A stretch of 64,000 bases of DNA from Candidatus Melainabacteria bacterium 17Bon1m (GCA_032128875.1 JAVLKG010000002.1:736001-800000); one strand, 5' to 3'; numbered from the stretch's first letter, positions 29,630 to 49,032 are shown. Translations and numbers: made by a program. The notes: generated by a model not told the origin, from the sequence alone.

Positions 29630-31321
29630 TTAGAGTTTTAAACCTTCGGTAAGGCTGGCAACAGAAACTGCACCGATGTCTCTAAGCAGTTGTGCTTGAG
29701 CCACATTGAAGTCTACAACGGCGCGAGCCTTGTTGACGCTTGCTTGCGTTAAATCTCGCTGCGCGTTCAATACGTCAATATTTAGACCGATGCCGGCGGA
29801 CATTCTCTTCTTGGCTATTCGCAATTCTTCTTCGGCAGCGAGAACTTGGACAGTTGCGCGATCGATTTTCTTATCTGATGCAGCGCTGTTGTTGTAGGAA
29901 GTCCTGACTTCATCGAATACATTCAAGAACGTTTTCTTAGCTTGTACTGCGGCTTGTCGAGCTTCCCAGCGAGCACGTTGCATGTTTGCTAAATCTTTGG
30001 TGCCTAAGCCACCAAGCTGCCATTTGATGCCCAGATTGATGTTGTAAATCGGGTCGAGATTTCCACCGGTGCCAACACCTACGATTGAACCACCCATTGA
30101 AACGTTGGGCTGCATTGGAGCTGCCGCGACGACAATCGCGCGTTTTGCGGCGAGGCGAAGTTCTTCGTATTGTTTTAATTCTGGACGTGCGTCTATTGCT
30201 CTCAACAACAGTTTTTCAACTGGTATCGATTTTGGTATCAGTCTTCTTTTCTTGAGGTGTTTTTCGCACGATTCCAGATCTTGAGAAAAACTCGTATTGA
30301 GAACGTGCGCAAGTTGAATTGCCGATTGGCGCCTTTGGTTTTGTTGCTCTACCAAATTTTGTTCGTCACTGGCAAGTTGTGCTTGCGACTGCAATACATC
30401 GAGCCCAGTCGCGGTGCCTGCCCTTTCTTGAGCTTGATTTAGTCGAACCTGCTCGATCGAAATTGCCACTGCCCGTGTGCGAATAGCGAGCAATGCTTCT
30501 TGCAGCAGCAAATCATAGTGTCTTTTGGTGGCACTCAGTAAAGTGTCGTTGACGTTTGCCGACAAACCGGCTCTTGAAGCGAACCAACGGTGACGCTGTT
30601 GCAAGGTGCTGAAAACAACGCTGCCGCCTCTGTAGAGGTTGTATGAAAAGCCTGCTTGCAATAATTGAATGTTTGTAGGTAGTTTTGCCTTACCACCATC
30701 AACTCTGTTGCCTGCGGTCGTAGCAGGCGTTGAACCGAATAACGAGGATGGAATACTGCCGTTGATCCCAAACAGGTTATATCCGCCGTTCAGATTGGGA
30801 AGAAAACCGGTGGCAGCCGATAGATATGAATAGCGATCAACTTTCGAGCGAACGAAACCTTCTTCAATGTCCAGGTTATGTTGGAGCGCAGCTTCAAGCG
30901 TGTCTTTCAAGCTAACCTTTTCAATGTAGCGAGCATCCAGGGAAAATGGATTGAGGTTTTCCTCCAGAGGAATCAACGCATCGAGCGAAGGACGCTCAAT
31001 CAAAACGCCAGTTTCATCACTTTCTTGTGCTGCACCCGGTTCTTTGATGCGCTCAAGTGGTGTTTCGACTTTATCGACAGTCCCTTGTCCTATTGGTCTT
31101 ACAGTCTGAGTTGCCCTAAGTTCGATCACATATTTTGGCGGCTTTTTCTGCTCTGCATTTGGTACGACTGTCTTTAGCGGCTTTTTGAGATCTTTCAAAG
31201 CATCTTTGTTGTCTTTGCCAGCATCAATTGTGGCTGCTACCGAGGGATGTCCAATGACAATACACGCGATGATAGGAACCGCTGCTATAGCGGAGTTCGC
31301 TAATTTCGACTTACCTGACAT
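29630..31321 (-). CDS. TolC family outer-membrane efflux protein
   Basis: Two OEP repeats (AGTATGLDVLQSQ; AGIGLNIDVLNAQ); last gene of the efflux cluster. Confidence 0.88.
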   Translation of the reverse strand: MSGKSKLANSAIAAVPIIACIVIGHPSVAATIDAGKDNKDALKDLKKPLKTVVPNAEQKKPPKYVIELRATQTVRPIGQGTVDKVETPLERIKEPGAAQESDETGVLIERPSLDALIPLEENLNPFSLDARYIEKVSLKDTLEAALQHNLDIEEGFVRSKVDRYSYLSAATGFLPNLNGGYNLFGINGSIPSSLFGSTPATTAGNRVDGGKAKLPTNIQLLQAGFSYNLYRGGSVVFSTLQQRHRWFASRAGLSANVNDTLLSATKRHYDLLLQEALLAIRTRAVAISIEQVRLNQAQERAGTATGLDVLQSQAQLASDEQNLVEQQNQRRQSAIQLAHVLNTSFSQDLESCEKHLKKRRLIPKSIPVEKLLLRAIDARPELKQYEELRLAAKRAIVVAAAPMQPNVSMGGSIVGVGTGGNLDPIYNINLGIKWQLGGLGTKDLANMQRARWEARQAAVQAKKTFLNVFDEVRTSYNNSAASDKKIDRATVQVLAAEEELRIAKKRMSAGIGLNIDVLNAQRDLTQASVNKARAVVDFNVAQAQLLRDIGAVSVASLTEGLKL

Positions 31322-31399
31322 ATCTACCTTCTAACCAGCTCAACCTAGTTTATCAGCGCTGCAATACGAAGCGCGATGTGCGTAACCAAAAAACGGTAC

Positions 31400-32743
31400 T
31401 CAGTTTGCAATTTTCACGGAGGGAACTACCGACATTCCCGGCGCCAGAAGGTCGTCGTAACCTTTAAGCGATTCCTTATCAAAGACAATCTTGACCTGTA
31501 CTCGCTGGACCACTTTCGTGAAGTTGCCGGTAGCATTGTCCGGAGGGAGCAAAGCGAATTGTGCTCCTGATGCCGGGGAGATTGACTCAACTTTGCCGGT
31601 TAAATGTGCGTTGGGATAAGCGTCAATTTTGATCTCGACTTTTTGCCCTGGACGCATTTTTTCAAGTTGCGTTTCTTTGAAGTTTGCCACCACCCATTTT
31701 TCATCGGAAACAATGCTCATGAGCGCTTGACCGCGTTCAATCTGTTGTCCGACTTCTACCGTTCGGTGTCCGACATGACCTGTTATTGGCGCCAAAACAC
31801 TTGTGTAAGAGAGCTGTGTTACCGCATGATTCACTTCGCTTTTAGCCTTGTCAGCAGCGGCCTCCTGGACATTCAAGTTGCGCTTGGTCATCTCCATTTG
31901 GGCTGCTGCAGCTGCGGCATTTTGTGAGGCGCCTTTGGCTCGAATCACATCAGCTTGGGCGTCGGCGACTGCTTGAGTTGCAGCTTGGACACGTGCCTTT
32001 GATTGTTTATAACCTTCTTGGGCCGCTTGCAAATTTGCTTCTGCTACTTCCTTATCTTGTTTTGCTCGCTCGAAGCTTTGAGCTGTGGCAGCGCGATCTT
32101 GTACAAGTGTTTTGTACCGCTCGTAGTCCGCTATACACCGAGTCAATTCTGCCTGACGTTGTTTGATCTCGGTTGCAGCAAGTGCAACTCCGAGTTTTGT
32201 CTCTGACAGCAATGCCTTTGCTTTATCCACGCCGGCAGTTGCACTGGCGACTGCTGACTCCGCTTCGAATTTACGTGCGGCGGCTTGACGCTCGTTGGCT
32301 ACGATGTTTGATTGCACTTCGAATGTTTTAAATTCCGCCTGAGCGGCTGCGGCTTTTGCGGTCGCCAGACTAATTTCTAAATCCTTTGGGTCGATACGCA
32401 GCAAGACGTCGCCTTGCTTCACGTGTTGATTATCGTCAACGAGCAACTGAGACACCGTTCCGCTGACTTTCGAGCTTAACTGGTGAACTCTTCCCGTGAT
32501 GAATGCGTCGTCCGTCTCAACGTAAGAAGAAGCATGTTGCCACCAAGCAAAGCCGCCAATTCCTGCGCCAATAAGAACAACTGTCGCCAAACCAATTGCC
32601 AGCGGATTTTTCTTCTTTTTCACCGGCTTATTCAATTCCGGTTGCTTTGGTATTGGTCCTACTAATTCAGGGTGGGGTTTGATTCCCGCCGTCGGGGTTT
32701 GTTTGGTCTCAATCTCGTTCATGGTTTCCGTGCCTGCAGCCAA
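31400..32743 (-). CDS. HlyD/EmrA family membrane fusion protein
   Basis: TDDAFI, ANFKETQL and LLPPDNATGNFTKVVQRV. Confidence 0.92.
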   Translation of the reverse strand: MAAGTETMNEIETKQTPTAGIKPHPELVGPIPKQPELNKPVKKKKNPLAIGLATVVLIGAGIGGFAWWQHASSYVETDDAFITGRVHQLSSKVSGTVSQLLVDDNQHVKQGDVLLRIDPKDLEISLATAKAAAAQAEFKTFEVQSNIVANERQAAARKFEAESAVASATAGVDKAKALLSETKLGVALAATEIKQRQAELTRCIADYERYKTLVQDRAATAQSFERAKQDKEVAEANLQAAQEGYKQSKARVQAATQAVADAQADVIRAKGASQNAAAAAAQMEMTKRNLNVQEAAADKAKSEVNHAVTQLSYTSVLAPITGHVGHRTVEVGQQIERGQALMSIVSDEKWVVANFKETQLEKMRPGQKVEIKIDAYPNAHLTGKVESISPASGAQFALLPPDNATGNFTKVVQRVQVKIVFDKESLKGYDDLLAPGMSVVPSVKIAN

Positions 32744-32779
32744 TTCAGGTTCTCCCTATGCATAGTGCATGACGTTGTA

Positions 32780-32812
32780 ATTATTGACCAAGTTTCAATT
32801 TTGGTCAATAAT
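32780..32812. promoter_or_regulatory. Putative TetR operator (12-bp perfect inverted repeat)
   Basis: ATTATTGACCAA-N9-TTGGTCAATAAT in the emrB-emrA intergenic region. Confidence 0.7.
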
Positions 32813-32825
32813 CCGCAATTAATGT

Positions 32826-34415
32826 TTAATGCATTTCCACGTTCGCCTTTCTCCGTCCAGACCCAAGCAGGAAGCAGAATGGAATCATGCAACCTGTGAA
32901 AACCGCCAGCAGCCAGGCGATGTCGCCAAAAGAAAGGGCTGCAGCCTGAGTATCGACTTGACTGCTCATGACCGCTAACGCTCGCGCCTTTGCGTCCGGC
33001 AGAGCCCATCCCTGGCGGCTGAACATTTCTGTAAGTGCAGACAGGCGGTTCATAGCCTCGGTTCCATAAGGTGTGATTTTTTCAACCAGAACCGCACGGT
33101 GAAAGTCTTCGCGACGAGTTAGGACGGTAGCGAGCATAGCAATTCCAACTCCGCCACCAAGTGTACGCACAAGGCTGAGTAGCGACGCGGCCGTTTGAAT
33201 GTCTTCAGGTGGGCAATCACCGACAGCAGCAATAGTCAAAGGAAGGAAAACGAGCACTAGCCCAAAGCCTCGAATAAGACTGGCGGTAAGAAAATGCTCC
33301 CAACCCCAGCTTAGAGTGAGGGGTACGAGAAACCAGTTGGATAAGCTTAAGCAGGCGATGCCGACGAATACCATCAAGCGCGCATCAATTTTTCCAATCA
33401 TGGCACCCACGACTGGAAACATAAATCCGGTGACAATGGACGCCGGAACCTGTAATAGTCCTGCTTGCAATGCTGTGTATCCCAACATGACCTGGGCGAA
33501 GTTTGGAATTACATAATTAATTCCGAAGAGTACAAAGCCGATCACACCCTGGAAAAGCAATCCAATAGCGACTGAGCGAAATCGAACGATGCGCAGATTG
33601 ACGGCTGGGTATTTCGTCCTCAACTCGTGTGCGAAAAACACGATCGCACCAATTGCAGTGGCGACCGTGCACCAAATTATCAATTTAGAAGAGAACCAAT
33701 CTTCGTCCTGACCCTTCTCTAGAACATATTGAAGTGAGCCAAGCATGACGCTCAAAGACATGATTCCGAGCCAGTCGACGCGAACCGCCGGAGCGTCTTG
33801 CTCGCGAGGTTTGTCTTGTGGGATAAATGCCTGACACAATGCCGTGGCAATGATTCCGATTGGAATGTTGATGAAGAATATCCATCGCCAATTGTAATTG
33901 TCTGTAAGCCAGCCGCCCAAAGTTGGTCCAACCACTGGTCCAACAATTACACAAATGCCGAATATCGCCTGGACAAGTCCTTGTTTCTCGGGCGGAAAAG
34001 CTTCAAAAAGAAACGCTTGAGCTTTGGCTAGCAATCCACCGCCAAATAGTCCCTGCATAACGCGTGCAAGGACAAGAGTCAAAAGATCATTTGAAATTCC
34101 ACAAAGAACAGATGCGACGGTAAAGCCGATCATAGAGAAAATGAAATAGCGCTTCTTGCCGAACATGTCACCAAACATGACAGCAAGTGGCATTGTAATG
34201 ACGTTAGCGATCGAATACGAAGTGACAACCCAGGCGGCTTCGCTTGTGGTGGCACCGAGGTTGCCTTGTATGTGAGGCAAGGCCACGTTGGTAATACTTG
34301 TATCGATTACCTCGATCAGTGCTGCGATTGCAACACCGACGAGAAACAACCAGCGGACGATCTCGCCATTTTCATCGACCCGGCGTTGAAGAGCTTCTTG
34401 GAGATATGTAGCCAT
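32826..34415 (-). CDS. DHA2 (EmrB/QacA) MFS efflux transporter
   Basis: DTSITNVALP, GPTLGGWLTDNYNWRWIFFINIP and GQDEDWF. Confidence 0.93.
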   Translation of the reverse strand: MATYLQEALQRRVDENGEIVRWLFLVGVAIAALIEVIDTSITNVALPHIQGNLGATTSEAAWVVTSYSIANVITMPLAVMFGDMFGKKRYFIFSMIGFTVASVLCGISNDLLTLVLARVMQGLFGGGLLAKAQAFLFEAFPPEKQGLVQAIFGICVIVGPVVGPTLGGWLTDNYNWRWIFFINIPIGIIATALCQAFIPQDKPREQDAPAVRVDWLGIMSLSVMLGSLQYVLEKGQDEDWFSSKLIIWCTVATAIGAIVFFAHELRTKYPAVNLRIVRFRSVAIGLLFQGVIGFVLFGINYVIPNFAQVMLGYTALQAGLLQVPASIVTGFMFPVVGAMIGKIDARLMVFVGIACLSLSNWFLVPLTLSWGWEHFLTASLIRGFGLVLVFLPLTIAAVGDCPPEDIQTAASLLSLVRTLGGGVGIAMLATVLTRREDFHRAVLVEKITPYGTEAMNRLSALTEMFSRQGWALPDAKARALAVMSSQVDTQAAALSFGDIAWLLAVFTGCMIPFCFLLGSGRRKANVEMH

Positions 34416-35036
34416 TTACTTTGATTCGCGTAGACCGTCGACCACTATGTTGAGAAGCAGTTTTGAACTTGCCTCCAACTCATCGCGAGTCATACGTTTT
34501 TCGGATTCCGTGTAGTTGTTGAAGTATGGAGGAAATAAACTCGACACAGCCATCAAGAATGCAATTGCAGTTGCATCGTTGGCCTTTTTCTGACTTATCT
34601 CTCCGGCTTCCGCTGCTTTCTTGAGGAATTTCAACACGCGTTCGCGCTTGCGAACATAGAAAGCACTAAATCTTGGCTTGAACTGAAGCGATGTATAAAG
34701 CAGCGCTTCAGGCGTGTGAATGTCACGCGTTACATAGTCATAGACCATCAGCGCGCACATTTGAAATGTTTCTTTCAACGATTCGAGTGGAGAGCCAGTG
34801 ATGTTTTCGGTGCGCTCGTCCATTAAGCCTTGAATTTTAGTGGCATATTTTTCAACCACGCGCATCAGAATTTCTTCTTTTGTTCGAAATTCAAGATATA
34901 CAGATCCTTTTCCTATACCAAGGTGTTTTGCAATATCCTCGATACTTGTCCGTTCGTAGCCGTATCTGGAAAACAGCTCTACAGCTGCTTCCTCGATGAG
35001 TTCCGCCCGGTTGTGAATGGATTTGGTTCGCGCCAT
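34416..35036 (-). CDS. TetR/AcrR family regulator
   Basis: LF...GY..TSIEDIA..LGIGKGSVY..F..KEE helix-turn-helix. Confidence 0.92.
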   Translation of the reverse strand: MARTKSIHNRAELIEEAAVELFSRYGYERTSIEDIAKHLGIGKGSVYLEFRTKEEILMRVVEKYATKIQGLMDERTENITGSPLESLKETFQMCALMVYDYVTRDIHTPEALLYTSLQFKPRFSAFYVRKRERVLKFLKKAAEAGEISQKKANDATAIAFLMAVSSLFPPYFNNYTESEKRMTRDELEASSKLLLNIVVDGLRESK

Positions 35037-35082: not shown

Positions 35083-36603
35083 TTATTCGTTTGTAATTTT
35101 TCGCGGCAATGTAATAGTGAAAATTGATCCGGCTCCTTCTTCGCTTTGAACAGAGATTGTTCCGCCGTGCCGTTCAACAATTGTTTTGCAAAGGTAGAGA
35201 CCAAGCCCCGAGCCATCAATGCGCCGCCGGCTGCGTTCTCCTTGGAAGTACTTCTTAAATAGATTCTTTTGATCAGTCTTTGAGATGCCAATTCCAGTGT
35301 CCGCAATTGATATAGACAATTCTGATTCGGATTTTTTGCTGGTTAGAATGATCATTCCGCCTTTCGGGGTGAATTTGACCGCATTACTTATGAGGTTGTG
35401 AAAAACACGCTTGATTGCGGTTCTTTCAACAGGAAGTATTTCCGGCTGACGTGAAAGTTGGTCGATTAATTGAATATTGTTGTGGCTCGCCAATGCACCT
35501 AATTCATTGACTGTCGCGCGAACCACTTCTATGACATCGGTTGATTCGATCATGCGGGGAACATTTTCCCCGTCGTTTCGTTGTACTTCAATTAGGTTTT
35601 GAATCATGTCCAACATCGAGCGATTGCCGCGCTTCAGCACCTCGAGTATGTTCTCCAGATCTCGGTCCAGAGTTCCGGCCGCTCCTTGGAGCAAGGCTTC
35701 GAATGTTTTCTCTGCTCCGATTAAAGGTGATTTGAGATCATGCACGAGTGCTGCAACCACCTCATGGACAGTTTCTGACTTCAAGTGGTCCTGTTCCATT
35801 GAGCTGACACAAACGCCGTTTGTCACGCCATTTGAATCTGTCACAGGCCAGATTGCGACAGTCCAATTAGGTGCCGGACCCGGTTTTGGTTTTGCCAAAA
35901 CTACGCTGGCGCATGTGACGTGCAGTTTTGACTTTGCTTGAAGGACATCTTCCAGCATTTCTTGTGTGATTGACGGAACTATGTCAGAGAGTCTTTGACC
36001 AACAATGTCATCGAATGAACCAAGCTGCTCATACGCTATTGGATTCACCTTTTCGATGCGAAACTCGCGATCTAATTTCCATATTGCAATTGGTGAGTTG
36101 AAGTGAGTATCAACTTGCGACTTCTCAGAGGGCATTCTAAGGGCGCTGAGCTGGTCGCTGGAATGAACGGTTTCGTTGATGTCAGTGCAGTAGCCGGTGA
36201 ATCCGCACAATCTTCCATCGTCTCCGTATTCCGGTGAGCCCGAATCAAGAACTTGTCGGAAGGTACCATCCGCGCGCCTCATTCGGTATTCAATATGGAA
36301 TGGTTGACGTGTCGCAACGGCGCTCTGTATCAACGTGCAAACGCGCTCACGATCTTCAGGATGGATGATTTTTTTCCAGCCGTCGCCTTCGACGTCTCTG
36401 TAAGATACACCTATGAATTTCAGCCATCTATTTGAGAAGAAGATTCGCTTGCCAGTGTGGTCGCTGAGCCAGACCATTTTAGGAATTTGATTTGTCAGCC
36501 GAGATAACAACGCCAGTTTTATGTCTGAAACCGACGAGTCGGCACAAAATCTTATCTTTTCCATTCTTGAGTCGCCTGGAGTCGAAGGGCGAAATCGCCA
36601 CAT
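35083..36603 (-). CDS. PAS-domain sensor histidine kinase
   Basis: PAS/PAC (IHPED, YRMRRADG), HDLKSPL, NLISNAVKF, DTGIG and GSGLGL; start uncertain (36564-36669). Confidence 0.9.
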   Translation of the reverse strand: MWRFRPSTPGDSRMEKIRFCADSSVSDIKLALLSRLTNQIPKMVWLSDHTGKRIFFSNRWLKFIGVSYRDVEGDGWKKIIHPEDRERVCTLIQSAVATRQPFHIEYRMRRADGTFRQVLDSGSPEYGDDGRLCGFTGYCTDINETVHSSDQLSALRMPSEKSQVDTHFNSPIAIWKLDREFRIEKVNPIAYEQLGSFDDIVGQRLSDIVPSITQEMLEDVLQAKSKLHVTCASVVLAKPKPGPAPNWTVAIWPVTDSNGVTNGVCVSSMEQDHLKSETVHEVVAALVHDLKSPLIGAEKTFEALLQGAAGTLDRDLENILEVLKRGNRSMLDMIQNLIEVQRNDGENVPRMIESTDVIEVVRATVNELGALASHNNIQLIDQLSRQPEILPVERTAIKRVFHNLISNAVKFTPKGGMIILTSKKSESELSISIADTGIGISKTDQKNLFKKYFQGERSRRRIDGSGLGLYLCKTIVERHGGTISVQSEEGAGSIFTITLPRKITNE

Positions 36604-36859
36604 GGCTTTACCCCTCTTATTCGACTGTATAGCGCAATCGTCTCGGCGTATATCACCCAAAGCGGTCATTTGTAGCCACTATTGTCAATTTTTTCTCAAC
36701 CGAAAGGCTGATTTGTTCGAAGGCGTTTTGAAGGTTTAACAAAAATCCCTTAGTGCGGCGGGAACTCTCAGCCCTGCTCCGCGTCACGACTATGTCCGAG
36801 TGGGCCGGAATCGTCCAAAACTGAAAAATTTCGACTCTCCCACTCATAGGGCAAGCGTG

Positions 36860-37492
36860 ATGAATAACTTGCATTTTAATAAGAACATTGAAAGCGGAAT
36901 GCTGTCTGCCTTGAAAGATTTGGCTGCACCCCATCCTGCTGAAGTAAGTGCGCAGCAATTTGTTCATAGGCAAACACTCGTCGATTTCGGCGAAATTCGT
37001 AATCGGATTGAGGTAGCCTGCGATGAATTTGAACTGCAAGAGAAGCCAATGAGCCTCATGCTAATCGCGGTCGATGGTATTGATAAGCTGATTGAAAACT
37101 ACGGAGAATACACTGCAAATCATGTTCGAGATTTTGTAGCTGCCTCTCTTTTTAGTATCTCTAGAGATGTCTATGGCGCGCGCAATCACTTCACTGTGGG
37201 TGAATATGTACAGGGGCGTTTGCTGATGCTGTTGCCTGAGATGGTTGGAGCAAACGCTCTCGAGTTTGCCGATGAGCTTCGCAAGGGCGTTTGCGCGACA
37301 GAGTTTAACTGGCAAAGCGAGCAATTGTGCATAACCGTCAGTATCGGCCTTGTCCACAAGCCTGGGCACAACGGCAATCACGATATGATGATTCTGCAGG
37401 CAGACCATGCCTGTTCTGAAGTTATCAAAATCGGCGGCAATCGAGTATCGCTGGCTAGAGCTGCTTGCCGTCTGCGCATAGTCACAGAATAA
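36860..37492 (+). CDS. Degenerate GGDEF-domain protein
   Basis: SLMLIAVD, YGEYTA, ITVSIG, AD.A and GGNRV; active site reads YVQGRL. Confidence 0.7.
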   Translation: MNNLHFNKNIESGMLSALKDLAAPHPAEVSAQQFVHRQTLVDFGEIRNRIEVACDEFELQEKPMSLMLIAVDGIDKLIENYGEYTANHVRDFVAASLFSISRDVYGARNHFTVGEYVQGRLLMLLPEMVGANALEFADELRKGVCATEFNWQSEQLCITVSIGLVHKPGHNGNHDMMILQADHACSEVIKIGGNRVSLARAACRLRIVTE

Positions 37493-37820: not shown

Positions 37821-39125
37821 ATGTCTTCTCCAATTTCGGTTCTTGTCGTTGAAGATCACGGGCTGTTCAGAACAGGAATTCGTGTAAGTTGCAACCGAGA
37901 CAAAAATATTACTGTTACTGGAGAGGCGTCAAACGGGTCAGAGGCTGTTGAGCAGGTAGAAAAACTCAATCCTGATGTTGTGTTGATGGATGTGAATATG
38001 CCGCTGATGGATGGCATCGAATCTACTCGCTTGATCAAGAATAAGAACCAAAATACTAAAGTCATTATGCTTACGTCACACGAAAGCCAGGGTGTACTGC
38101 AATCGGCTGTGTCGGCGGGAGCCAGCGGCTATTGTTTGAAAGACGTTGACTCTGAGATTCTTTGCTCGGTCATCAAGGCGGTACACCGTGGAGAAGTGTG
38201 GATTGATCCGACGGTTAAGAAGAACGCTGAAGACCAAGTAAATACACTTAAAGCGTCCGGTTCAACGCGACCTTCTGAGTCTTCCAGTGTAGGTCTTTTC
38301 GGAAGCGCGCCTGTTAATGCAAACGATCTGCTCGTCAATCGATATGAAAATCTTGGTCTGCTTGGTCAAGGTGGAATGAGCCTTGTGTACAAAGCTAGGC
38401 ACAAAATGTTGGACAAGATTGTCGCGGTGAAGGTTTTGGCAAATCACTTGAGCCATATCGAAGCTTTTTCTGCGCGATTCATTCAAGAAGCGAGAGTCGC
38501 AAGTCGCTTATCTCATCCGAACATCGCTTCTGTTTTTGACTTTGGTATCACCTCTGACTCGAATGCTTTTCTTGTTATGGAATTCGCTGATGGACCATCT
38601 CTGTCTCATCATCTCGGCAATAATGGTCGCGTAGACGAAGCAACAGCAATGATGATTTTCAAACAATTAAGAGATGCGCTTGGATACGCGCACGAGCAAG
38701 GCGTCATTCACCGCGATATAAAACCCGCAAACACTATCCTCACCAATGGCAATGGCAACTTTCCGCACGTCAAATTAATCGACTTTGGTCTTGCGAAGCT
38801 TTCAAACATTGAAAATCCGAAGCTCACCATTAATGGAGAGGTAATTGGCAGTCCACTGTATATGAGCCCAGAGCAGTGCAAAGGGATGGCTGTCGACAAT
38901 CGCTCGGATATTTATTCTCTGGGGTGTTTGATGCATGAAGTAATTACCGGCTATCCACCATTCCGAGGCGAAACTGCTTTGGATACCTTCCGAATGCATG
39001 TGCAAGATGAGTATGAAGAACCATCCGCAAATGTTTGTTCTGAGCACCTGAGAGAAATATTGCGCAAATGCTTGAGTAAACGCCCTGAGGACAGGTTCAG
39101 TAGCCTTAACGATATTGTGCTCTAA
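37821..39125 (+). CDS. Response-regulator receiver fused to Hanks-type Ser/Thr kinase
   Basis: REC: VVEDH, VLMDVNMP, MLTS, LK. Kinase: GQGGMSLVY, VAVK, HRDIKPAN, DFG, GSPLYMSPE. Confidence 0.92.
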   Translation: MSSPISVLVVEDHGLFRTGIRVSCNRDKNITVTGEASNGSEAVEQVEKLNPDVVLMDVNMPLMDGIESTRLIKNKNQNTKVIMLTSHESQGVLQSAVSAGASGYCLKDVDSEILCSVIKAVHRGEVWIDPTVKKNAEDQVNTLKASGSTRPSESSSVGLFGSAPVNANDLLVNRYENLGLLGQGGMSLVYKARHKMLDKIVAVKVLANHLSHIEAFSARFIQEARVASRLSHPNIASVFDFGITSDSNAFLVMEFADGPSLSHHLGNNGRVDEATAMMIFKQLRDALGYAHEQGVIHRDIKPANTILTNGNGNFPHVKLIDFGLAKLSNIENPKLTINGEVIGSPLYMSPEQCKGMAVDNRSDIYSLGCLMHEVITGYPPFRGETALDTFRMHVQDEYEEPSANVCSEHLREILRKCLSKRPEDRFSSLNDIVL

Positions 39126-39260
39126 ATCCGATAAGTCTTGCAGCACATTGCCTTCGAGAAATGACTTGAAATGAGTGACCAAATTTTGCAGTTGAAAAGT
39201 ATTGAGTCTTCAGGCTGGGAGTGCAATAAAGGCATTTGACAGCTGTAAGCAGTCTTTGTC

Positions 39261-40394
39261 TTGCATAGAACAAAACAGATCACCATCACTTCTTTTCTCT
39301 TCGCGATTATTTTTCTAATCGCGCGCCCAGTAACTGCCCAGGGCTGAGCGAGATCAATGCTGGTGCCGGGGGCAGCAGGGACATCAGGGGAAATCAAACC
39401 AGGTCATGGGACTTTGTCCCTTGGCTATAGAAACGTGTATGCAAATCAATATTTTCTCAACGCTCACATCGATTCGAATGAGACAAGAGCAGAGCGGCCC
39501 ACGCGCCTTTGGAATACGTTAGATTTGACGGGCACGTATCAACTTACCCGTCGTGTCAATTTGCAGGCTACGCTGCCCCTTCAATGGAATCAAGCATCAT
39601 TGCTGATTCCGCTTAACGAAGGTCCGTTGGCACAGAGTTTTCGTCAGCGTCTAAGTACAGCTGGAGTCGGCGATATCTTGCTGATGGAGCGAACTTGGCT
39701 GTTTGACCCGGAAAATGTGAAGAGAGGGAATGTTTCTTTTGGACTTGGCTTAAAACTTCCAACAGGAAATTACCGTGGCAACAACAATTGGCCTGGTCTT
39801 GGCCCCGGCGTCTGGAACAACAAACCTGCGCCTCTCACAATATTGGTTGGCGATGGTGGCGTTGATGTCCTGGCAGAGATACTTGCATATCGCATTGTGA
39901 AATTCCCCGTGCGAAAGACGAATCTATTTGCTGTCGGAAGTTATTTGATTACACCACGTGGAACAACTGGTGTGCCTTCTCAAAATTTCTTGTTCGGACC
40001 TCCAATTTCGACAAGCCCTCTGACGCAGAACTCTTTAGTAAATACGGTGCCTGATTCTTATTCTCTTCGAGCAGGCATGATTGTCCCTTCGCCATGGAAA
40101 GACAATAAGTATTTGAAACCATTTTCTGGATTAATCGCATATCGATGGGATGGCAGTCCCCAACGAGATTTCATTGGCAACAGTAAAGGATTTCGCCAAC
40201 CGGGATTTTTTATGGCTGTGGAATTAGGTTTGTTCTACCAAAAGGGTCGTCATCTTGTGCAGGCGACCACTCCAATTTCTTTTCTTAGATACGGTTCCTT
40301 TAACAGCGGTGGCGAATTGCAAAACAGTCCTGCGCCACGAACCACTGCATTCTCTCCGGCATCACTGGCGGTGCGCTATACGTATTTTTATTAA
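39261..40394 (+). CDS. Putative outer-membrane beta-barrel transporter-like protein with in-frame TGA (candidate selenoprotein or pseudogene)
   Basis: TTG 39261 gives signal peptide-QG, then TGA (39345), then ARS in frame with ORF 39357-40394; GVGDI, GLKLPTG and aromatic C-terminus YTYFY. Confidence 0.7.
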
Positions 40395-40435
40395 TTACGT
40401 TCTTATTGCGTTGAACTTGACTGTTGATGTTTTCT

Positions 40436-41776
40436 CTAAAAGTATTTGATAATTCTGAAAACACGATCAACGTGATCTTTTACTTCTGTTTTTGAAGCTG
40501 TGCGTCCAAGCTGTTCTCCAGAGCTTGCACGAATGGCAGCGGCTATTTCGGATGCTTTGGTAAATGCGGCATTATTTGCGGCAGAATCTCCAGTTGCTGT
40601 TCCAATATTGGCGGCGCCAATGGTGCCGTCCGGATTTGCTGGTGTAGCCAAACGTTTGTCCAAGAGAAACGCCTGATCAGCTGTGCCGGTAGTGGATGAA
40701 ATTCGCAAGTCTCTCGAGACATTGTTGAGCGCTTGACTCAGAATCGGTGCGACAGACGAAGGTTCTACACCAGTCTTGCGAATACTGTCCATTCCTTCGT
40801 TGAACAATTTATTCATATCGTCAGGTTTCGCGAAAGCGATTTTGTTGGCGGCATCGACTGCTGCATTCACTACTGGATCTCTACCGTTTGGACCTAGCTG
40901 ACCCTTAAGTTTTGCCGCTTGCTCTTGTTCGCTCGGCAAGTTTGCCGGACGTTCTCTGGCGCCAACATCTTTGGTTGGTGCAAAGAGTCCTGCACTCTCT
41001 TGCGTCGCCAGAATGTTTCCAATATCATTGCCAACTTTTTCTTGTTGGTCCTTAGGCACATCTGAAAGAACCTTGTCTATTGCGCCTTTGACTGCCGGCG
41101 CTGCATTGAACGCTCTATTGTCCGCTGTGAAATTCTCCGGCATTTCTACAATGCTGGCCCTGCCTACGATCTTTTCATTATTCGGATCGCTTTTATCAAA
41201 TAGCAGACCCATTGGTGGCTGGTTGGCTGTTCGCAGGTTTGACCCCTGATCACTAAGCGCGACACCGATGGCTTTGTTGAACGTTTCGCGTTGTTCGGGC
41301 GCAACACCTCTCATCGCCTCATCATATTTCTTCTGGCGATCGTCTGGGCTGGCGGAGGTCAAATTTCTTGCGGTATCAATCGCGTTGCCGTAAAACTTGT
41401 CTTGTTGCGCAGGGTCCATTGCGCTGATGTTGCTATCTCCAACACGCGACTTAACGGAATCGATTTCCTTGCGGCGCTCCGCACTTATGGGAGCTTCTTT
41501 GTTGGCGTCTTGGGCAGCGAACCGTCCTTCCACCTTTTGTGGAGTGCCGTCTCCTTCAACCGCAGAGTCAAAGAACTGCACATCATTGAGGATGTTTTGA
41601 TTGACAAGTGTTTGACTTTCGGTCGCAAGATCCGGTCGTTGAGGGTTGTCGACGCCAATGCCCGGTACGGCTTCGGACGTGACATTTTCGCTTACAGGAA
41701 CGACATCTAAAGCACGGTCGGTGCTGTTGTCCGTAACTGCGGGCGCAGGAGTAGAAGGTGCGTCAGTGGGAGGCAC
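40436..41776 (-). CDS. Hypothetical protein with two-fold internal repeat
   Basis: 446-aa ORF; two similar units (..PDD.....LLFDK/FLLDK....N.AF..A..I..AI). Confidence 0.7.
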   Translation of the reverse strand: MPPTDAPSTPAPAVTDNSTDRALDVVPVSENVTSEAVPGIGVDNPQRPDLATESQTLVNQNILNDVQFFDSAVEGDGTPQKVEGRFAAQDANKEAPISAERRKEIDSVKSRVGDSNISAMDPAQQDKFYGNAIDTARNLTSASPDDRQKKYDEAMRGVAPEQRETFNKAIGVALSDQGSNLRTANQPPMGLLFDKSDPNNEKIVGRASIVEMPENFTADNRAFNAAPAVKGAIDKVLSDVPKDQQEKVGNDIGNILATQESAGLFAPTKDVGARERPANLPSEQEQAAKLKGQLGPNGRDPVVNAAVDAANKIAFAKPDDMNKLFNEGMDSIRKTGVEPSSVAPILSQALNNVSRDLRISSTTGTADQAFLLDKRLATPANPDGTIGAANIGTATGDSAANNAAFTKASEIAAAIRASSGEQLGRTASKTEVKDHVDRVFRIIKYF

Positions 41777-45051: not shown

Positions 45052-46428
45052 GTGTCTGAGTCTTACGTTGACTATCTCTATCGCTATCCATTTGCCTCTT
45101 CCCTGGCGGCGGCAACGACTGGCAATGAGCTGAAGCTGGCAGCTTCAGAGCAGCAGAAAGCATTTCCGCATTTTTTTGAAGGTTCTTTACTTCAGCCCAG
45201 GGCGACAGCGCTTATGCTGTTCATTCTCTCTAGAATCGTCAGTACGAGATTTTATATTCCTCCAAATTTGCTTAAGCGTATGTTGTTGGAGCGAGATCCT
45301 GTAATAACCTGCGGAGCCGAAATGCTCCGTTTTGAAGGATTTAGCGCATGTTGTAGTGCATACGCTAGGGTCGATATTTCCCCTGATGCATATAGGGGAC
45401 GGATCGTTAGCCATGGCACTACGAACGTCGACTTTAATACAGTGATGCGTTCTGCACTAGCAGTGGTGCGTGACGATGACAGAGTTTCAATGTCCATAGG
45501 GGCTGATGGCTTGGAACTCAAGCACGGTTTCAATAAAATTGAAGAGAAGAAGGTACAACTTCCAACGCGTTGGATAAAAGGTTTCGTTGAAGTCCAAGCG
45601 TATCAGTCAAGAATGGAGAAGCGATTTTCTGTCGGCAGGGTTGAATCCATTCGTTTTCTTCGTTCTCTACCGTCAAGTACCAATGTGAAATCCAGTTTCT
45701 ATGTAATTCCTTCAGGGAAAGGACTCCGCATAAGCCAGCGAAATGATGGTTCTGGTGTTCGAGTCGGTGGTACTGAGCGACTCCTGCTGCTCAAAGATTT
45801 AGTACCTCTCTCAGACGGATTGACAGTTTTTGCAAGACCTGACGGAGAAGCTTCAGAGTGGAGGCTTGATTGTGCTGGTGTAACCTTTTGCTTGACCATT
45901 TCTTCTGAACCGTCTCGCGGATTTTCCGGAGAAGGGCAGGTCCTCAACGAACTAACATTTACTGACACGGAAAAACTTAGCTCTGTTCGCTCAACATTGA
46001 AATGGCAATCTTGTGTTGATATTGGCGAAATTGCAAGACTCAATGGATTGAATGAAGATGCTGTTAGACAGACTTTGAGCGCGCTGGGCTCACGCGGATT
46101 GGTCGGTTTTGATCTTGGAAGAGGTGCGTATTTCCATAGAGAGTTGCCTTTCGATATGGAACTTATCGACGACATGCACCCTCGTCTCAAGAATGCTCGG
46201 AAGTTAGTTGACAAGGATGACGTGAAATTGAAATCTAGCGATCTAGAGTCGTTACAGTTTGAAGTACGGGGGACTGATGTGCAGCACACTGTAAAAATCT
46301 TCTCTACACATTCGCAGTGCACCTGTCCTTGGTATTCTAAGTATCAAGGCTTGCGAGGTCCGTGCAAGCATATTCTTGCTGCGCAAATTGTGGTGGATGG
46401 ATTGCCTGAATCAGAGGCAAACAGATAG
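45052..46428 (+). CDS. SWIM zinc-finger domain protein
   Basis: C-terminal CTCPW...GPCKH; RFEGFSACC, TTNVDFN, RWIKGF and RGFSGEG. Confidence 0.85.
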   Translation: MSESYVDYLYRYPFASSLAAATTGNELKLAASEQQKAFPHFFEGSLLQPRATALMLFILSRIVSTRFYIPPNLLKRMLLERDPVITCGAEMLRFEGFSACCSAYARVDISPDAYRGRIVSHGTTNVDFNTVMRSALAVVRDDDRVSMSIGADGLELKHGFNKIEEKKVQLPTRWIKGFVEVQAYQSRMEKRFSVGRVESIRFLRSLPSSTNVKSSFYVIPSGKGLRISQRNDGSGVRVGGTERLLLLKDLVPLSDGLTVFARPDGEASEWRLDCAGVTFCLTISSEPSRGFSGEGQVLNELTFTDTEKLSSVRSTLKWQSCVDIGEIARLNGLNEDAVRQTLSALGSRGLVGFDLGRGAYFHRELPFDMELIDDMHPRLKNARKLVDKDDVKLKSSDLESLQFEVRGTDVQHTVKIFSTHSQCTCPWYSKYQGLRGPCKHILAAQIVVDGLPESEANR

Positions 46429-46452
46429 GTTGCTGCTCTGAGAGATTCAATA

Positions 46453-49032
46453 GTGCCGACTCAACTACAAATATTTGATGAGATCATTTCTGCCGGCAAT
46501 CATGATGGACTGCGCGCGTTCTTTTCGGGCTTAGATCAACAGGAGCGAAGTGCATTTGCTGCCAAAGCTATCGCGTGGTACAGGAAGGCTCGAAATGGAA
46601 AAGTGGTTCAGAGGGAGCCAAATGTCTGGGGGTGGGAGCGAGACTATCCAAATGATGTTGAAGTTGCTAGCGCTACCGCTGTTCTGGTAACTGCAGCACC
46701 TGAACAACTTTCAAAAATTGATTGGAGTTTAAGCTCAGAGTCATTTGATTTTGACTTTGTCCTTAAAATGCGTCCTCCCGCACTTCAACACTTCGGTGAG
46801 GTCTTGGTGAAGGATGGACAGCATTTTGAATTGGTTAGAAAAATGATGGAGTGTGGCCTCTGTTGTAAGCCAGAAAGTGAAAACTACATAATTGGATTGA
46901 TGGCAGAAGGTAGGGGTTTGCACAAGACGCACGAAAAAGATTCGTCGCTCAAATTATGGCTGCTCGACAATCCTGATTTGCTTGAGGTAGATATTTGGCG
47001 ATTATTTGAAGTGGAAGGCGACAAAGAAACCAGCTTGAGGCAAGTGGATGCTTATACATCTCAGCAAAATTCATGGGCAGAAACACTAAGTCAACTTTCG
47101 CAAGAAAATTTCCTTTCGCGAGAGCGTCTGTTAAAAGCGAGTCTTGAGGCACTAGGACGTGGCTTCAATCAATACAAGTCGTTATGGTATTCGCAGTTTC
47201 ATGAATACATGCAACCGACAGTTGAAGAAAGAGTACGTCTCGAAGGTGACTATGCATTGCTCTTGGGTAGCACATCACCGAGTACAGTGACATTTGCTCT
47301 GAAGGCGTTGAAAGTAATCGAAACTAATAACGGACTTAGTAGAAATATACTTAGTAAGGCTCTACCGCAAGTAATGAATGTAAAGGCTAAAAGCACAATT
47401 ACTGCTGCCATTTCTTTCCTTGAGAACGCAGTGAAACGTGATTCTACTTTTTCAGAGGCGGCGGCCCTAATCTGTATGGACGCGCTTCAGCATGAGTCAC
47501 CTGAACTTCAGAAACAGGTGCTCAAATTTCTTGAGCGCCACGGAAATCGAGATTGTCCAAAATTTCGAAACAAGATTGCACTATATGCGCACGGGATGTC
47601 GCCACTTGTAGTGGCACAATTTGAAACTCTTACTCAGAGCAAAATTGACACATGGGCTCAAGCTAGTACGCAAGGTTCTGAGCGTTATTCATTTCAGCCA
47701 AATTCGTCCGAAAGTTGGCCGCTAGGTTACGTTGACCCGGTTGTGCCGATTCTTAAGGCTGACGAGTTTATTGAAACCGCCTTATATTGTCTTGAACATC
47801 CCTACGACGCTTTTCAGCTAGAGCGAATTTTTCAAGCCGTATCGACATTGCGCTTGCGTGAGGACTCTGAATTTGAGAAGCAATTCGCTCCAGTTATGAT
47901 TAGGGCTAAGAAGCTTCGGCAGAACACTGAGTGGCATAAACAGCCCGGTGCGCTTATCGCGGATTTCTTGTATCAATGGTTGACGCTGAGCATTTTGGAT
48001 AATGTTGAACTAGTGGTTCCAGATGCGCATGCTGTTCTTCTCCTGATGCGGAGGAGGTTGACAAAAATTCTAGAGCGAGCTAAGCAAAGTAGATATTTAC
48101 CTTTGCTGAGCAGTCCTTGTTTTGTCGGCGGATGGATTGACTCGCGGACGTTTGAATCGAGATTGGCTGCTTGGAATGCGGCTGGTGAAACCCCAGACGT
48201 ATACGATCAGATGTTGGCTTTGTTTAGAATGCCTGCTTCTGAGCGGCGACCTAACTATGAATTTGGATCAATTGGCAACAAGCTAAAAGCTGGGTTGGAG
48301 AAATGGGAAGACATACGACGAGGACCGGATCTCTATGATAGGAGACAACCCCTGACTGTTAGCTATTACCGTGATCTTCATGAGCTAGAAACCGCAGTCA
48401 ATATCGGTGATGGCTGTATCTTTAGTCACATGTCTAGCTTTACTGCGGCTCGGTGGGCAACAAATCTTTTTCCATCTATGAGAGAGTCGATTTTGAGTTT
48501 GGGCGTAAACTGGGGCGTTCTTCTGTTAGATGAAGTAGGTTCAAGTGATCGTGGAATAAGAGCTTTCTTTGAAATGCTTGGAGAACCTGGCGCTCCTCTG
48601 GAAAGGCAAGCATATGTGATGATGCTTGTAGGTTTGTTAATGAAAGATCCAGAGTTTGCGGCATTTAGCCGAGATGCAGTGATCCAAGCAATAGATGAAA
48701 AAAGGCTTGATCCTGAACAGATGGGAAAACGCGTTGCGCAATTTCTGCATTCCGATCGTGCAAAACCAAAAAGGTTGGCGTCGTCAATGCGCGAAATTGC
48801 ACGAGTAAGTTCCGTTCATTCTGATGCTATGCTTCGCTTGATTTGTTGTTCCTTTCATGGTGATTCGAAGAATCTTCATAAGGACGCTTCGGCAATTCTG
48901 GAGTTGCTGTTGGAGCTATTAACCGCGTCAGGTAGTCGTATTGAGAATGAAGATATGCTGAATTATTTGAGTTCTCTTAAAGCTGGTGGCAAAACTGCAA
49001 GACTGGTCAAATCTCTGCTCACATATTTCTAA
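46453..49032 (+). CDS. Large alpha-helical repeat protein (DUF6493-like)
   Basis: DIWRLFEVEG, SRERLL..SL and WYSQFHE; HEAT-like helices; downstream of the SWIM gene. Confidence 0.65.
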   Translation: MPTQLQIFDEIISAGNHDGLRAFFSGLDQQERSAFAAKAIAWYRKARNGKVVQREPNVWGWERDYPNDVEVASATAVLVTAAPEQLSKIDWSLSSESFDFDFVLKMRPPALQHFGEVLVKDGQHFELVRKMMECGLCCKPESENYIIGLMAEGRGLHKTHEKDSSLKLWLLDNPDLLEVDIWRLFEVEGDKETSLRQVDAYTSQQNSWAETLSQLSQENFLSRERLLKASLEALGRGFNQYKSLWYSQFHEYMQPTVEERVRLEGDYALLLGSTSPSTVTFALKALKVIETNNGLSRNILSKALPQVMNVKAKSTITAAISFLENAVKRDSTFSEAAALICMDALQHESPELQKQVLKFLERHGNRDCPKFRNKIALYAHGMSPLVVAQFETLTQSKIDTWAQASTQGSERYSFQPNSSESWPLGYVDPVVPILKADEFIETALYCLEHPYDAFQLERIFQAVSTLRLREDSEFEKQFAPVMIRAKKLRQNTEWHKQPGALIADFLYQWLTLSILDNVELVVPDAHAVLLLMRRRLTKILERAKQSRYLPLLSSPCFVGGWIDSRTFESRLAAWNAAGETPDVYDQMLALFRMPASERRPNYEFGSIGNKLKAGLEKWEDIRRGPDLYDRRQPLTVSYYRDLHELETAVNIGDGCIFSHMSSFTAARWATNLFPSMRESILSLGVNWGVLLLDEVGSSDRGIRAFFEMLGEPGAPLERQAYVMMLVGLLMKDPEFAAFSRDAVIQAIDEKRLDPEQMGKRVAQFLHSDRAKPKRLASSMREIARVSSVHSDAMLRLICCSFHGDSKNLHKDASAILELLLELLTASGSRIENEDMLNYLSSLKAGGKTARLVKSLLTYF

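Follow-up and report, generated by a model that had tools for sequence, protein, structure and literature searches.

Among the 12-stranded beta-barrels of the outer membrane, FapF, the functional-amyloid secretion channel of Pseudomonas, has a plug before the barrel and a long coiled-coil N-terminal part. The COG4313 channels (Pput2725 of Pseudomonas putida F1, PDB 4RL8; SphA; TcpY) are built on the same 12-stranded barrel; according to the COG4313 study, the N-terminus of Pput2725 (~14 residues) is folded into the barrel lumen from the periplasm, the conserved residues of COG4313 include Pro119-Thr120-Gly121, and the proposed substrates are hydrophobic molecules, the transport mechanism being an open question (PMC4493636). 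FadL-type channels follow the same general barrel logic, and the titles of PDB entries ('Phe3Glu mutant of EcFadL', 'delta N3') indicate that their first mature residues matter; they have 14 strands and, in the passage of that study on TodX, a hatch of ~40 residues (PMC4493636). Selenocysteine (Sec) has been predicted by comparative genomics in two other outer-membrane barrels, the GSU2204 / MtrB-PioB barrel (NF041027) and the FCYXU-type TonB-dependent receptor (NF049945), which are the outer-membrane entries of a May 2026 review of prokaryotic selenoproteins (PMC13188914).

Here we describe a gene located in a window of 64,000 nucleotides from Candidatus Melainabacteria bacterium 17Bon1m (GCA_032128875.1, JAVLKG010000002.1:736001-800000), in which an in-frame UGA (39345-47) very probably encodes selenocysteine in an exported outer-membrane barrel of the COG4313/FapF class. 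This reading of the UGA had been proposed in an initial annotation of the window and is now supported by the conservation of the TGA, by a column of Cys in homologues, by the sel genes of the genome and by co-occurrence with selA. The predicted protein shares the 12-stranded barrel of FapF and, in place of the coiled-coil N-terminus of the latter, would carry a tip of ~20 residues with the Sec. It differs in family and fold from the two catalogued Sec-bearing barrels, neither of which has its Sec at the mature N-terminus. The tip of the window family reads Q-G-Cys/Sec; FadL-type channels have no such tip, and the accessible text of the COG4313 paper nowhere mentions 'cysteine' (PMC4493636).

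Gene layout and barrel fold

Read from TTG 39261, the frame gives MHRTKQITITSFLFAIIFLIARPVTA-QG-TGA(39345-47)-ARSMLVPG... and is then open to the TAA at 40392-94, with this single TGA followed by 348 residues of barrel body (Table 1). The initial annotation had described this frame, with its signal peptide, Q-G and one TGA, and every coordinate matched on re-reading. A TTG, GTG or ATG is found at a roughly equivalent position in orthologues, and a leader of like build lies ahead of the motif in all 28 related frames and in 79 of the 80 distant loci considered below. From the A-x-A-type pattern, we infer that the leader is cleaved after A26. The Sec position would then be residue 29 of the precursor, ahead of any folded domain; the mature window protein has no Cys elsewhere, and many Bacteroidota forms carry a second Cys 6-10 residues later. 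As had been remarked, the ORF called by standard tools begins at ATG 39357 and misses the leader, and the suspicion that such callers truncate the gene is borne out by the database proteins of close relatives, which are calls of the same kind with 343-346 aa. Judged from its sequence, 39261-40394 is one real gene, mis-called by standard tools.

Table 1. Features of the barrel locus, with positions counted from the first nucleotide of the window
Feature	Position	Strand	Basis or remark
Receiver-Ser/Thr protein kinase fusion, context gene upstream, co-directional	37821..39125	+	Pfam Response_reg 3.9e-28, Pkinase 1.9e-54
Start codon TTG of the full gene	39261..39263	+	sole ATG/GTG/TTG between upstream stop TAA 39246-48 and hydrophobic core
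Predicted signal peptide, 26 aa: basic n-region HRTK, hydrophobic core ITITSFLFAIIFLIA, c-region RPVTA	39261..39338	+	frame reading
Putative mature N-terminus Gln-Gly-Sec (CAG GGC TGA)	39339..39347	+	inferred; G2 and C3 invariant, Q1 at least 90% conserved in alignment A6
In-frame TGA, probably read as selenocysteine	39345..39347	+	column conservation, Cys in homologues
Predicted mature protein, 351 aa: ~20-residue flexible tip, then 12-stranded COG4313-type beta-barrel	39339..40391	+	AlphaFold, structural match
Stop codon TAA	40392..40394	+	frame reading
Shortened ORF of standard callers, 345 aa, without leader, ATG start	39357..40394	+	ORF call
Small G-rich hairpin, candidate SECIS	39358..39378	+	starts 11 nt after TGA; apical loop ~20 nt after TGA
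446-aa ORF downstream	40436-41776	minus	no Pfam match, no usable Atlas match

The body of the protein, already described as barrel-type, was identified by AlphaFold and structural comparison as a 12-stranded barrel of the COG4313 'transporter-like' kind. A confident barrel was predicted with 130 aligned sequences (pLDDT 87.7, pTM 0.85), and a second model of the mature chain, based on 96 aligned sequences with more N-termini, gave similar values (pLDDT 86.6, pTM 0.86). The best structural match is 4rl8_C, that is Pput2725 (Z 24.8, rmsd 2.5 A over 256/268 residues; Foldseek E 5e-10), with a sequence identity of only ~14%, and FapF (PDB 5O65) is the top Foldseek match (E 9e-12; Z 21.5), no fap genes being found near the window gene; 12-stranded autotransporter barrels (Z about 19) and FadL-type channels (Z 12-13) match more weakly. 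Some homologues carry PF13557 (Phenol_MetA_deg) in precomputed annotation. The window protein itself remains below the Pfam cut-off for this domain (17.8 vs 22 bits, E 0.0036), and neither it nor six Cys homologues have a match in NCBIfam release 20. A K-x-P-T-G motif is nearly invariant in alignment A3 (K165, P167, T168 and G169 in P0001 numbering). Compared as short motifs rather than through an alignment, P-T-G and G-x-G-D-type motifs are present in both the window protein and Pput2725, and both have an N-terminal segment before strand 1. Both the fold and the assignment to this family can be regarded as secure. In the two models, however, the 14-20 residues at the start of the mature chain, including the Sec, stay below a pLDDT of 60, and the second run did not order them; the tip can thus be placed by analogy only.

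The TGA/Cys column and the selenocysteine machinery

The read-through product was searched in 61 related genomes, including that of the window, and matches were obtained in 23 of them at 36 places. Going by the names of two database homologues, the window's lineage probably belongs to non-photosynthetic Cyanobacteriota of the Vampirovibrionia/Obscuribacterales type. Exactly one TGA is present at 33 of these places, the remaining three not covering the N-terminus. In the 28 full frames that were extracted, which range from 98% to ~31% identity and represent 11 genera, the TGA is always preceded by a signal peptide and Q-G, with S-G instead in a single frame. A paralogue in the same genome (G000:C20), 38% identical to the window protein, has the same build. 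The initial annotation had cautioned that the TGA might be a sequencing error. This is ruled out: the codon is unaltered in the contigs of four public runs from three studies, one sample being possibly the source of the window DNA, and it is conserved in other genomes, so that it is not an assembly error either. One independent run has four listed differences elsewhere in the gene and an intact TGA. In RNA-labelled public runs, contigs of 52-54 kb span the whole stretch; since contigs of about 50 kb indicate that DNA was present, they cannot show expression.

The column was also read in the DNA of a wider sample, comprising one genome per species and collected by a profile search with a 14-sequence subgroup alignment; because of this query, the 80 named loci are biased towards the query subgroup and Bacteroidota. 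QG-TGA is found in 18 of these distant loci (ten in Gemmatimonadota, three in Verrucomicrobiota and the rest in Thermoanaerobaculia, Acidobacteriota, Vicinamibacterales, Armatimonadota and Candidatus Deferrimicrobium), and QG-Cys in 61, which include all the Bacteroidota (Maribacter and Flagellimonas among them) and some Gemmatimonadota and Verrucomicrobiota; L053 alone could be assigned to neither form. Among the loci with the TGA form, no cultivated strain was noted. Homologues thus have Cys, and not Trp or Arg, where the UGA stands, and the column is invariantly C/U, in agreement with the expectation of the initial annotation; the 'AQGC' N-terminus that it attributed to similar transporter-like proteins does occur, after a leader, in P0016 (49% identical, reading ...ARAQGCVRGLVVPGAAG) and in distant full-length database homologues. 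In the 96-sequence mature-chain alignment (A6), in which Sec is written as C, only six columns are invariant and the G and C/U of the motif are two of them, Q1 being at least 90% conserved. By this measure, no feature of this large family, which spans many phyla, is better conserved than the Q-G-Sec tripeptide (Q-G-C where Cys replaces Sec).

Such conservation bears directly on the possibility that the true gene is the shorter ORF from ATG 39357, the leader and TGA being a decayed remnant or a chance open frame. Gene callers do choose this ORF, the database entries of relatives have the corresponding 343-346 aa, and the hairpin after the TGA is statistically unremarkable. However, a decayed remnant would be expected to gather further stops and frameshifts, whereas leader, Q-G and exactly one TGA persist in 28/28 frames down to ~31% identity and in 18 loci of other phyla, and 61 homologues have Cys at the column. 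Moreover, the outer membrane is out of reach for a barrel protein without a leader. We therefore consider the shorter ORF extremely unlikely to be the true gene.

The same residues are relevant to the nature of the cleavage site. A small residue, G, stands just ahead of the invariant Cys/Sec at the end of the leader, as it might in a lipoprotein cut by signal peptidase II right before the Cys/Sec, in which case this residue would be lipidated and serve as an acylated anchor rather than a free selenol. The lipobox consensus is [LVI][ASTVI][GAS]C, but nearly all sequences have A/G/S, Q and G at positions -3 to -1, and Q at -2 departs from it. The conservation of Q (at least 90%) suggests that it belongs to the mature protein, the A-x-A or A-x-G before it fits signal peptidase I in nearly all sequences, and integral barrels seldom need a lipid anchor. 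A lipoprotein-type site is thus very unlikely, and a mature protein starting with Gln-Gly-Sec is the preferred reading.

The initial annotation had asked for sel genes in the genome. selA, selB and selD are all present above curated cut-offs, together with a tRNA-Sec (selC; 67.5 bits) whose anticodon is TCA (ARAGORN). Among the 26 genomes of the same bacterial family that were covered by both the selA and the homologue searches, all 12 holders of the TGA gene have selA; no homologue occurs in the five selA-negative genomes, nor in nine others that do have selA. Among the genomes of other phyla, 15 of the 17 with the TGA form have a clear selA, vs 11 of the 25 with the Cys form. The two exceptions, one without selA and one with a 45-aa selA fragment at a contig end, are metagenome assemblies whose completeness is not established. 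Hence, TGA forms occur almost only in selA-holding genomes. TGA has nonetheless not been reassigned and is still a stop codon, since the paralogue in the same genome terminates with ...YIRTF-TGA and several orthologues of the window gene also terminate in TGA.

The hairpin downstream of the UGA

Bacterial SECIS elements lie just 3' of the UGA, the minihelix of E. coli fdhF being located about 11 nt downstream. As in this paradigm, the UGA of the window gene is inside the coding region, a hairpin with G/U in its apical loop follows 11-20 nt downstream and selA, selB, selC and selD are present; the window-clade hairpin differs in being short (3+3 or 4+3 pairs) and without statistical support, and its binding by SelB is putative. 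The SECIS-like hairpin of the initial annotation, TGCT-ggt-GCC-GGG-GGC-AGCA, is indeed present at 39358-39377, and an alternative register, CUG-g-UGC[CGGGG]GCA-g-CAG, can be drawn at 39360-78. It is, however, no more stable than shuffled sequences or synonymous recodings: over 51 nt from the TGA, the folding energy (-12 kcal/mol, z -0.96) was equalled by 36 of 200 dinucleotide shuffles, and no Rfam match was obtained in 39250-39500 at E up to 10.

Comparison between groups gave a mixed picture. In 11 orthologues, the six predicted pairs are each kept in 9 to 11 sequences, and their helix shows no compensatory change. Every member of the paralogue group (17 sequences) can form a hairpin of 4-8 bp that encloses the V-P-G codons and has a G or U in its loop; the 3' arms are in different registers, so that no common structure could be counted, and RNAalifold retained four pairs only, with one compensatory change common to two related sequences. 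In the window clade, the hairpin is statistically indistinguishable from the structure that the conserved V-P-G-A-A-G codons, which specify a G/P/A-rich peptide, would impose by themselves. The 18 TGA forms of other phyla share an 8-bp helix with a GUU loop (alignment columns 21-39), the apical loop starting 26 nt after the TGA. This helix is 86% paired, vs 30-47% with the partner shifted; both sides change in 16 cells, vs 6.0 in shuffles, and the covariation score is 0.337 vs 0.161, a value reached by none of 500 shuffles. One of the covarying pairs joins two wobble (codon third) positions.

Against synonymous recodings of the 48 nt after the TGA, none of the groups is unusually stable: the mean z is +0.49 both in the 11 orthologues and in the 17 sequences of the paralogue group, -0.20 in the 18 TGA forms from other phyla and -0.33 in the Cys forms, and none of the 46 TGA genes lies in the lowest 5% of its recodings. 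Likewise, Sec (46) and Cys (61) forms do not differ overall in the folding energy of the 52 nt that follow the codon (p 0.13). Within the Gemmatimonadota only, ten Sec forms have a mean z of -1.16 vs +0.06 for 13 Cys forms (p 0.0014), a weak result as the sequences are related and the peptides differ; a similar hairpin is also kept in some Cys forms. Altogether, the hairpin is at the right distance (loop ~20-26 nt after the UGA) and is a plausible candidate SECIS, and the SECIS question is the weakest part of the Sec case.

The weak SECIS signal in the window clade would be compatible with insertion of one of the standard amino acids (Trp, Cys, Gly or Arg) at the UGA, either through near-cognate decoding or in a reassigned code. 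Yet TGA serves as the stop codon of the same-genome paralogue and, in several relatives, of this gene, the Cys present in the non-TGA forms is the classic signature of Sec, TGA forms track selA (in the 12/12 and 15/17 genomes mentioned above) and a covarying hairpin follows the TGA in a sister clade. Decoding as a standard amino acid is thus highly improbable, and selenocysteine remains the favoured identity of the residue.

Neighbouring genes and possible role of the tip

Farther upstream of the kinase fusion (Table 1), the window contains a GGDEF gene and a PAS histidine kinase, and a cluster of ORFs including Pkinase is found at 43 of 110 loci. Such kinases are common in the window genome (129 domain hits in 7.55 Mb), and their link to the barrel is therefore suggestive only. 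Four loci of Bacteroidota have an OmpR-type regulator upstream, together with a histidine kinase. Exported proteins of the thioredoxin fold are more informative neighbours than the Pkinase cluster. A TlpA-like exported redoxin with a WCxPC motif directly adjoins the barrel gene in 18 loci, 17 of them in Gemmatimonadota, with Sec as well as Cys forms, and one in Vicinamibacterales; in five loci of the window's own genus, an exported thioredoxin-like gene (CPAC) is immediately downstream. No thioredoxin gene lies beside the barrel within the window, and the orthologue of the exported thioredoxin in the window genome is elsewhere (contig C3), amid unrelated genes. The occurrence of exported thioredoxin-fold genes beside the barrel in two lineages suggests a redox-active tip. 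The initial annotation had envisaged a protein for metal or redox sensing or uptake: these neighbours in relatives support such a putative role only indirectly.

These neighbours also weigh on another reading of the UGA, namely that it acts mainly as a regulatory pause or stop, the full-length barrel being produced only when selenium is available and Sec having no chemical role of its own. Termination at residue 29, before any folded domain, would indeed cost little. Nevertheless, the invariant Cys of the non-Sec forms argues for side-chain chemistry, and the exported thioredoxin-fold neighbours point to a chemical role, which leaves a mainly regulatory UGA next to no chance of being correct.

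The UGA is very probably decoded by the cell's SelA, SelB, SelD and tRNA-Sec, and cleavage of the signal peptide would release a mature protein starting with Gln-Gly-Sec. By analogy with the solved COG4313 channel, the flexible tip of ~20 residues could be located at the periplasmic opening of the barrel or inside it, where its single selenol would be a reactive nucleophile, redox-active or ligand-capturing, and would gate or assist transport or sensing. Exported thioredoxin-fold proteins might reduce or recycle it. We put forward only tentatively this placement of a redox-cycled Cys/Sec at the periplasmic mouth in the service of channel transport or sensing. Somewhat more speculative still is the idea that the barrels, their exported thioredoxin-fold partners and the adjacent signalling kinases might form an undescribed outer-membrane thiol/selenol system, in which the tip would trap covalently, or sense, a species that reacts with thiols (oxidant, soft metal, or else sulfur or selenium itself) and thioredoxin would reset it. 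Sec-type formate dehydrogenase (TIGR01553) was not found in the window genome (the best match, at 82 bits, has no internal stop), and the SelD of the window lineage is without UGA; on these grounds, the barrels could, with the same reserve, be a main reason why the Sec machinery is kept in this lineage.

None of the 119 families that the May 2026 review catalogues for prokaryotic selenoproteomes resembles this one (PMC13188914, Table 1). A description of it was not found in the literature on outer-membrane selenoproteins, Melainabacteria, soil phyla and the MetA pathway, where the supplements of papers may list further predicted families, and no title among the matches listed for COG4313 concerns selenium. 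The family is missing from the catalogue because gene callers cut its genes at the UGA. Of the 220 database relatives, 100 carry G-C at the column behind a leader, 34 are later fragments and 11 are unclear; the other 75 are leaderless and start 1-26 residues past the Cys/Sec column, which is the signature of calls cut at a TGA, this TGA being mostly inferred rather than seen. A systematic annotation error is thereby exposed, with 75 of 220 relatives apparently cut after the Sec column.

If the reading proposed here is true, this would be a widespread selenoprotein family, present in at least five named phyla in addition to the window's lineage, with Sec at the very N-terminus of a mature outer-membrane protein. 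The invariant Q-G-C/U tip offers a starting point for work on a large branch of COG4313-like channels that is still uncharacterised. According to the review, prokaryotes have no known specific system for the high-affinity transport of selenium (PMC13188914); a selenol on an outer-membrane channel would be a candidate for chalcogen or metal handling.

Barrel genes and candidate selenoprotein genes in the genome

The genome from which the window derives (G000) encodes a second barrel gene of the QG-TGA type at locus L049, whose own stop codon is TGA; a receiver-GGDEF gene lies upstream of it on the same strand, and a convergent Pkinase gene is found downstream. A search of the whole of G000 for a Sec-type formate dehydrogenase (TIGR01553) found none, and the selD gene is without an in-frame stop. 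The two barrels may be among the selenoproteins for which the organism retains its Sec machinery. Three public sequencing runs (X2-X4), recorded as transcriptomic RNA-Seq, gave contigs of 52-54 kb that are identical to the window (checked over 39100-40500); since contigs of this length match the window, these libraries contain genomic DNA or are mislabelled.

Genes surrounding the barrel gene

The genes preceding the barrel gene in the window encode signalling proteins (see table), and 43 of the 110 related loci share a Pkinase-containing ORF cluster. Given the 129 Pkinase hits in G000, the probability that such a gene adjoins the barrel gene by chance is not small. The ORF on the other side has no match in Pfam and no usable Atlas hit, and its conservation is limited to four loci (L023-L026). 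In five genomes of the same genus (loci L028, L030, L031, L032 and L033), the gene directly 3' of the barrel gene codes for a thioredoxin-like protein that is exported and carries the motif C-P-A-C; G000 also encodes an orthologue of this protein.

Features in the window and elsewhere in its genome (G000; C3 and C20 are contigs; bare positions refer to the window)
Feature	Position	Strand	Remarks
PAS histidine kinase	35083-36669	-	Precedes the receiver-Ser/Thr kinase gene
GGDEF gene	36800-37492	+	Precedes the receiver-Ser/Thr kinase gene
Response-regulator receiver fused to Ser/Thr kinase	37821-39125	+	Directly upstream of the barrel gene
446-aa ORF	40436-41776	-	Convergent with the barrel gene
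Second QG-TGA barrel gene (L049)	G000:C20:11849-12877	-	38% identical to the window barrel
C-P-A-C thioredoxin-like orthologue	G000:C3:466518-467027		71% identical; unrelated neighbourhood

Farther away, positions 29630-35036 (- strand) carry consecutive genes for a TetR regulator, an MFS pump, a HlyD-type adaptor and an outer-membrane efflux protein, which look like an ordinary tripartite efflux operon. A SWIM zinc-finger protein, followed by an 859-aa protein with DUF6493, DUF7824 and DUF7825, is encoded at 45052-49032 (+ strand).

Irregular homologues and Cys forms

The homologue at L044 (G021:C5:1698641-1699629, in a related genome) matches in two pieces lying in different frames, the first of which stops early (265 aa counted from Q). 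Either a frameshift that has made the gene a pseudogene or a fault in the assembly may account for this. At the Gemmatimonadales locus L053, the closest relative of the homologous database protein P0035, the N-terminal region is not readable in the frame of the body. Two Cys forms from Gemmatimonadota (L063 and L071) retain, just 3' of the Cys codon, a hairpin resembling that of the TGA forms. Such a hairpin may be a mere consequence of the conserved S-P-S-L-G-G codons, or it may be the mark of recent switches from Sec to Cys.
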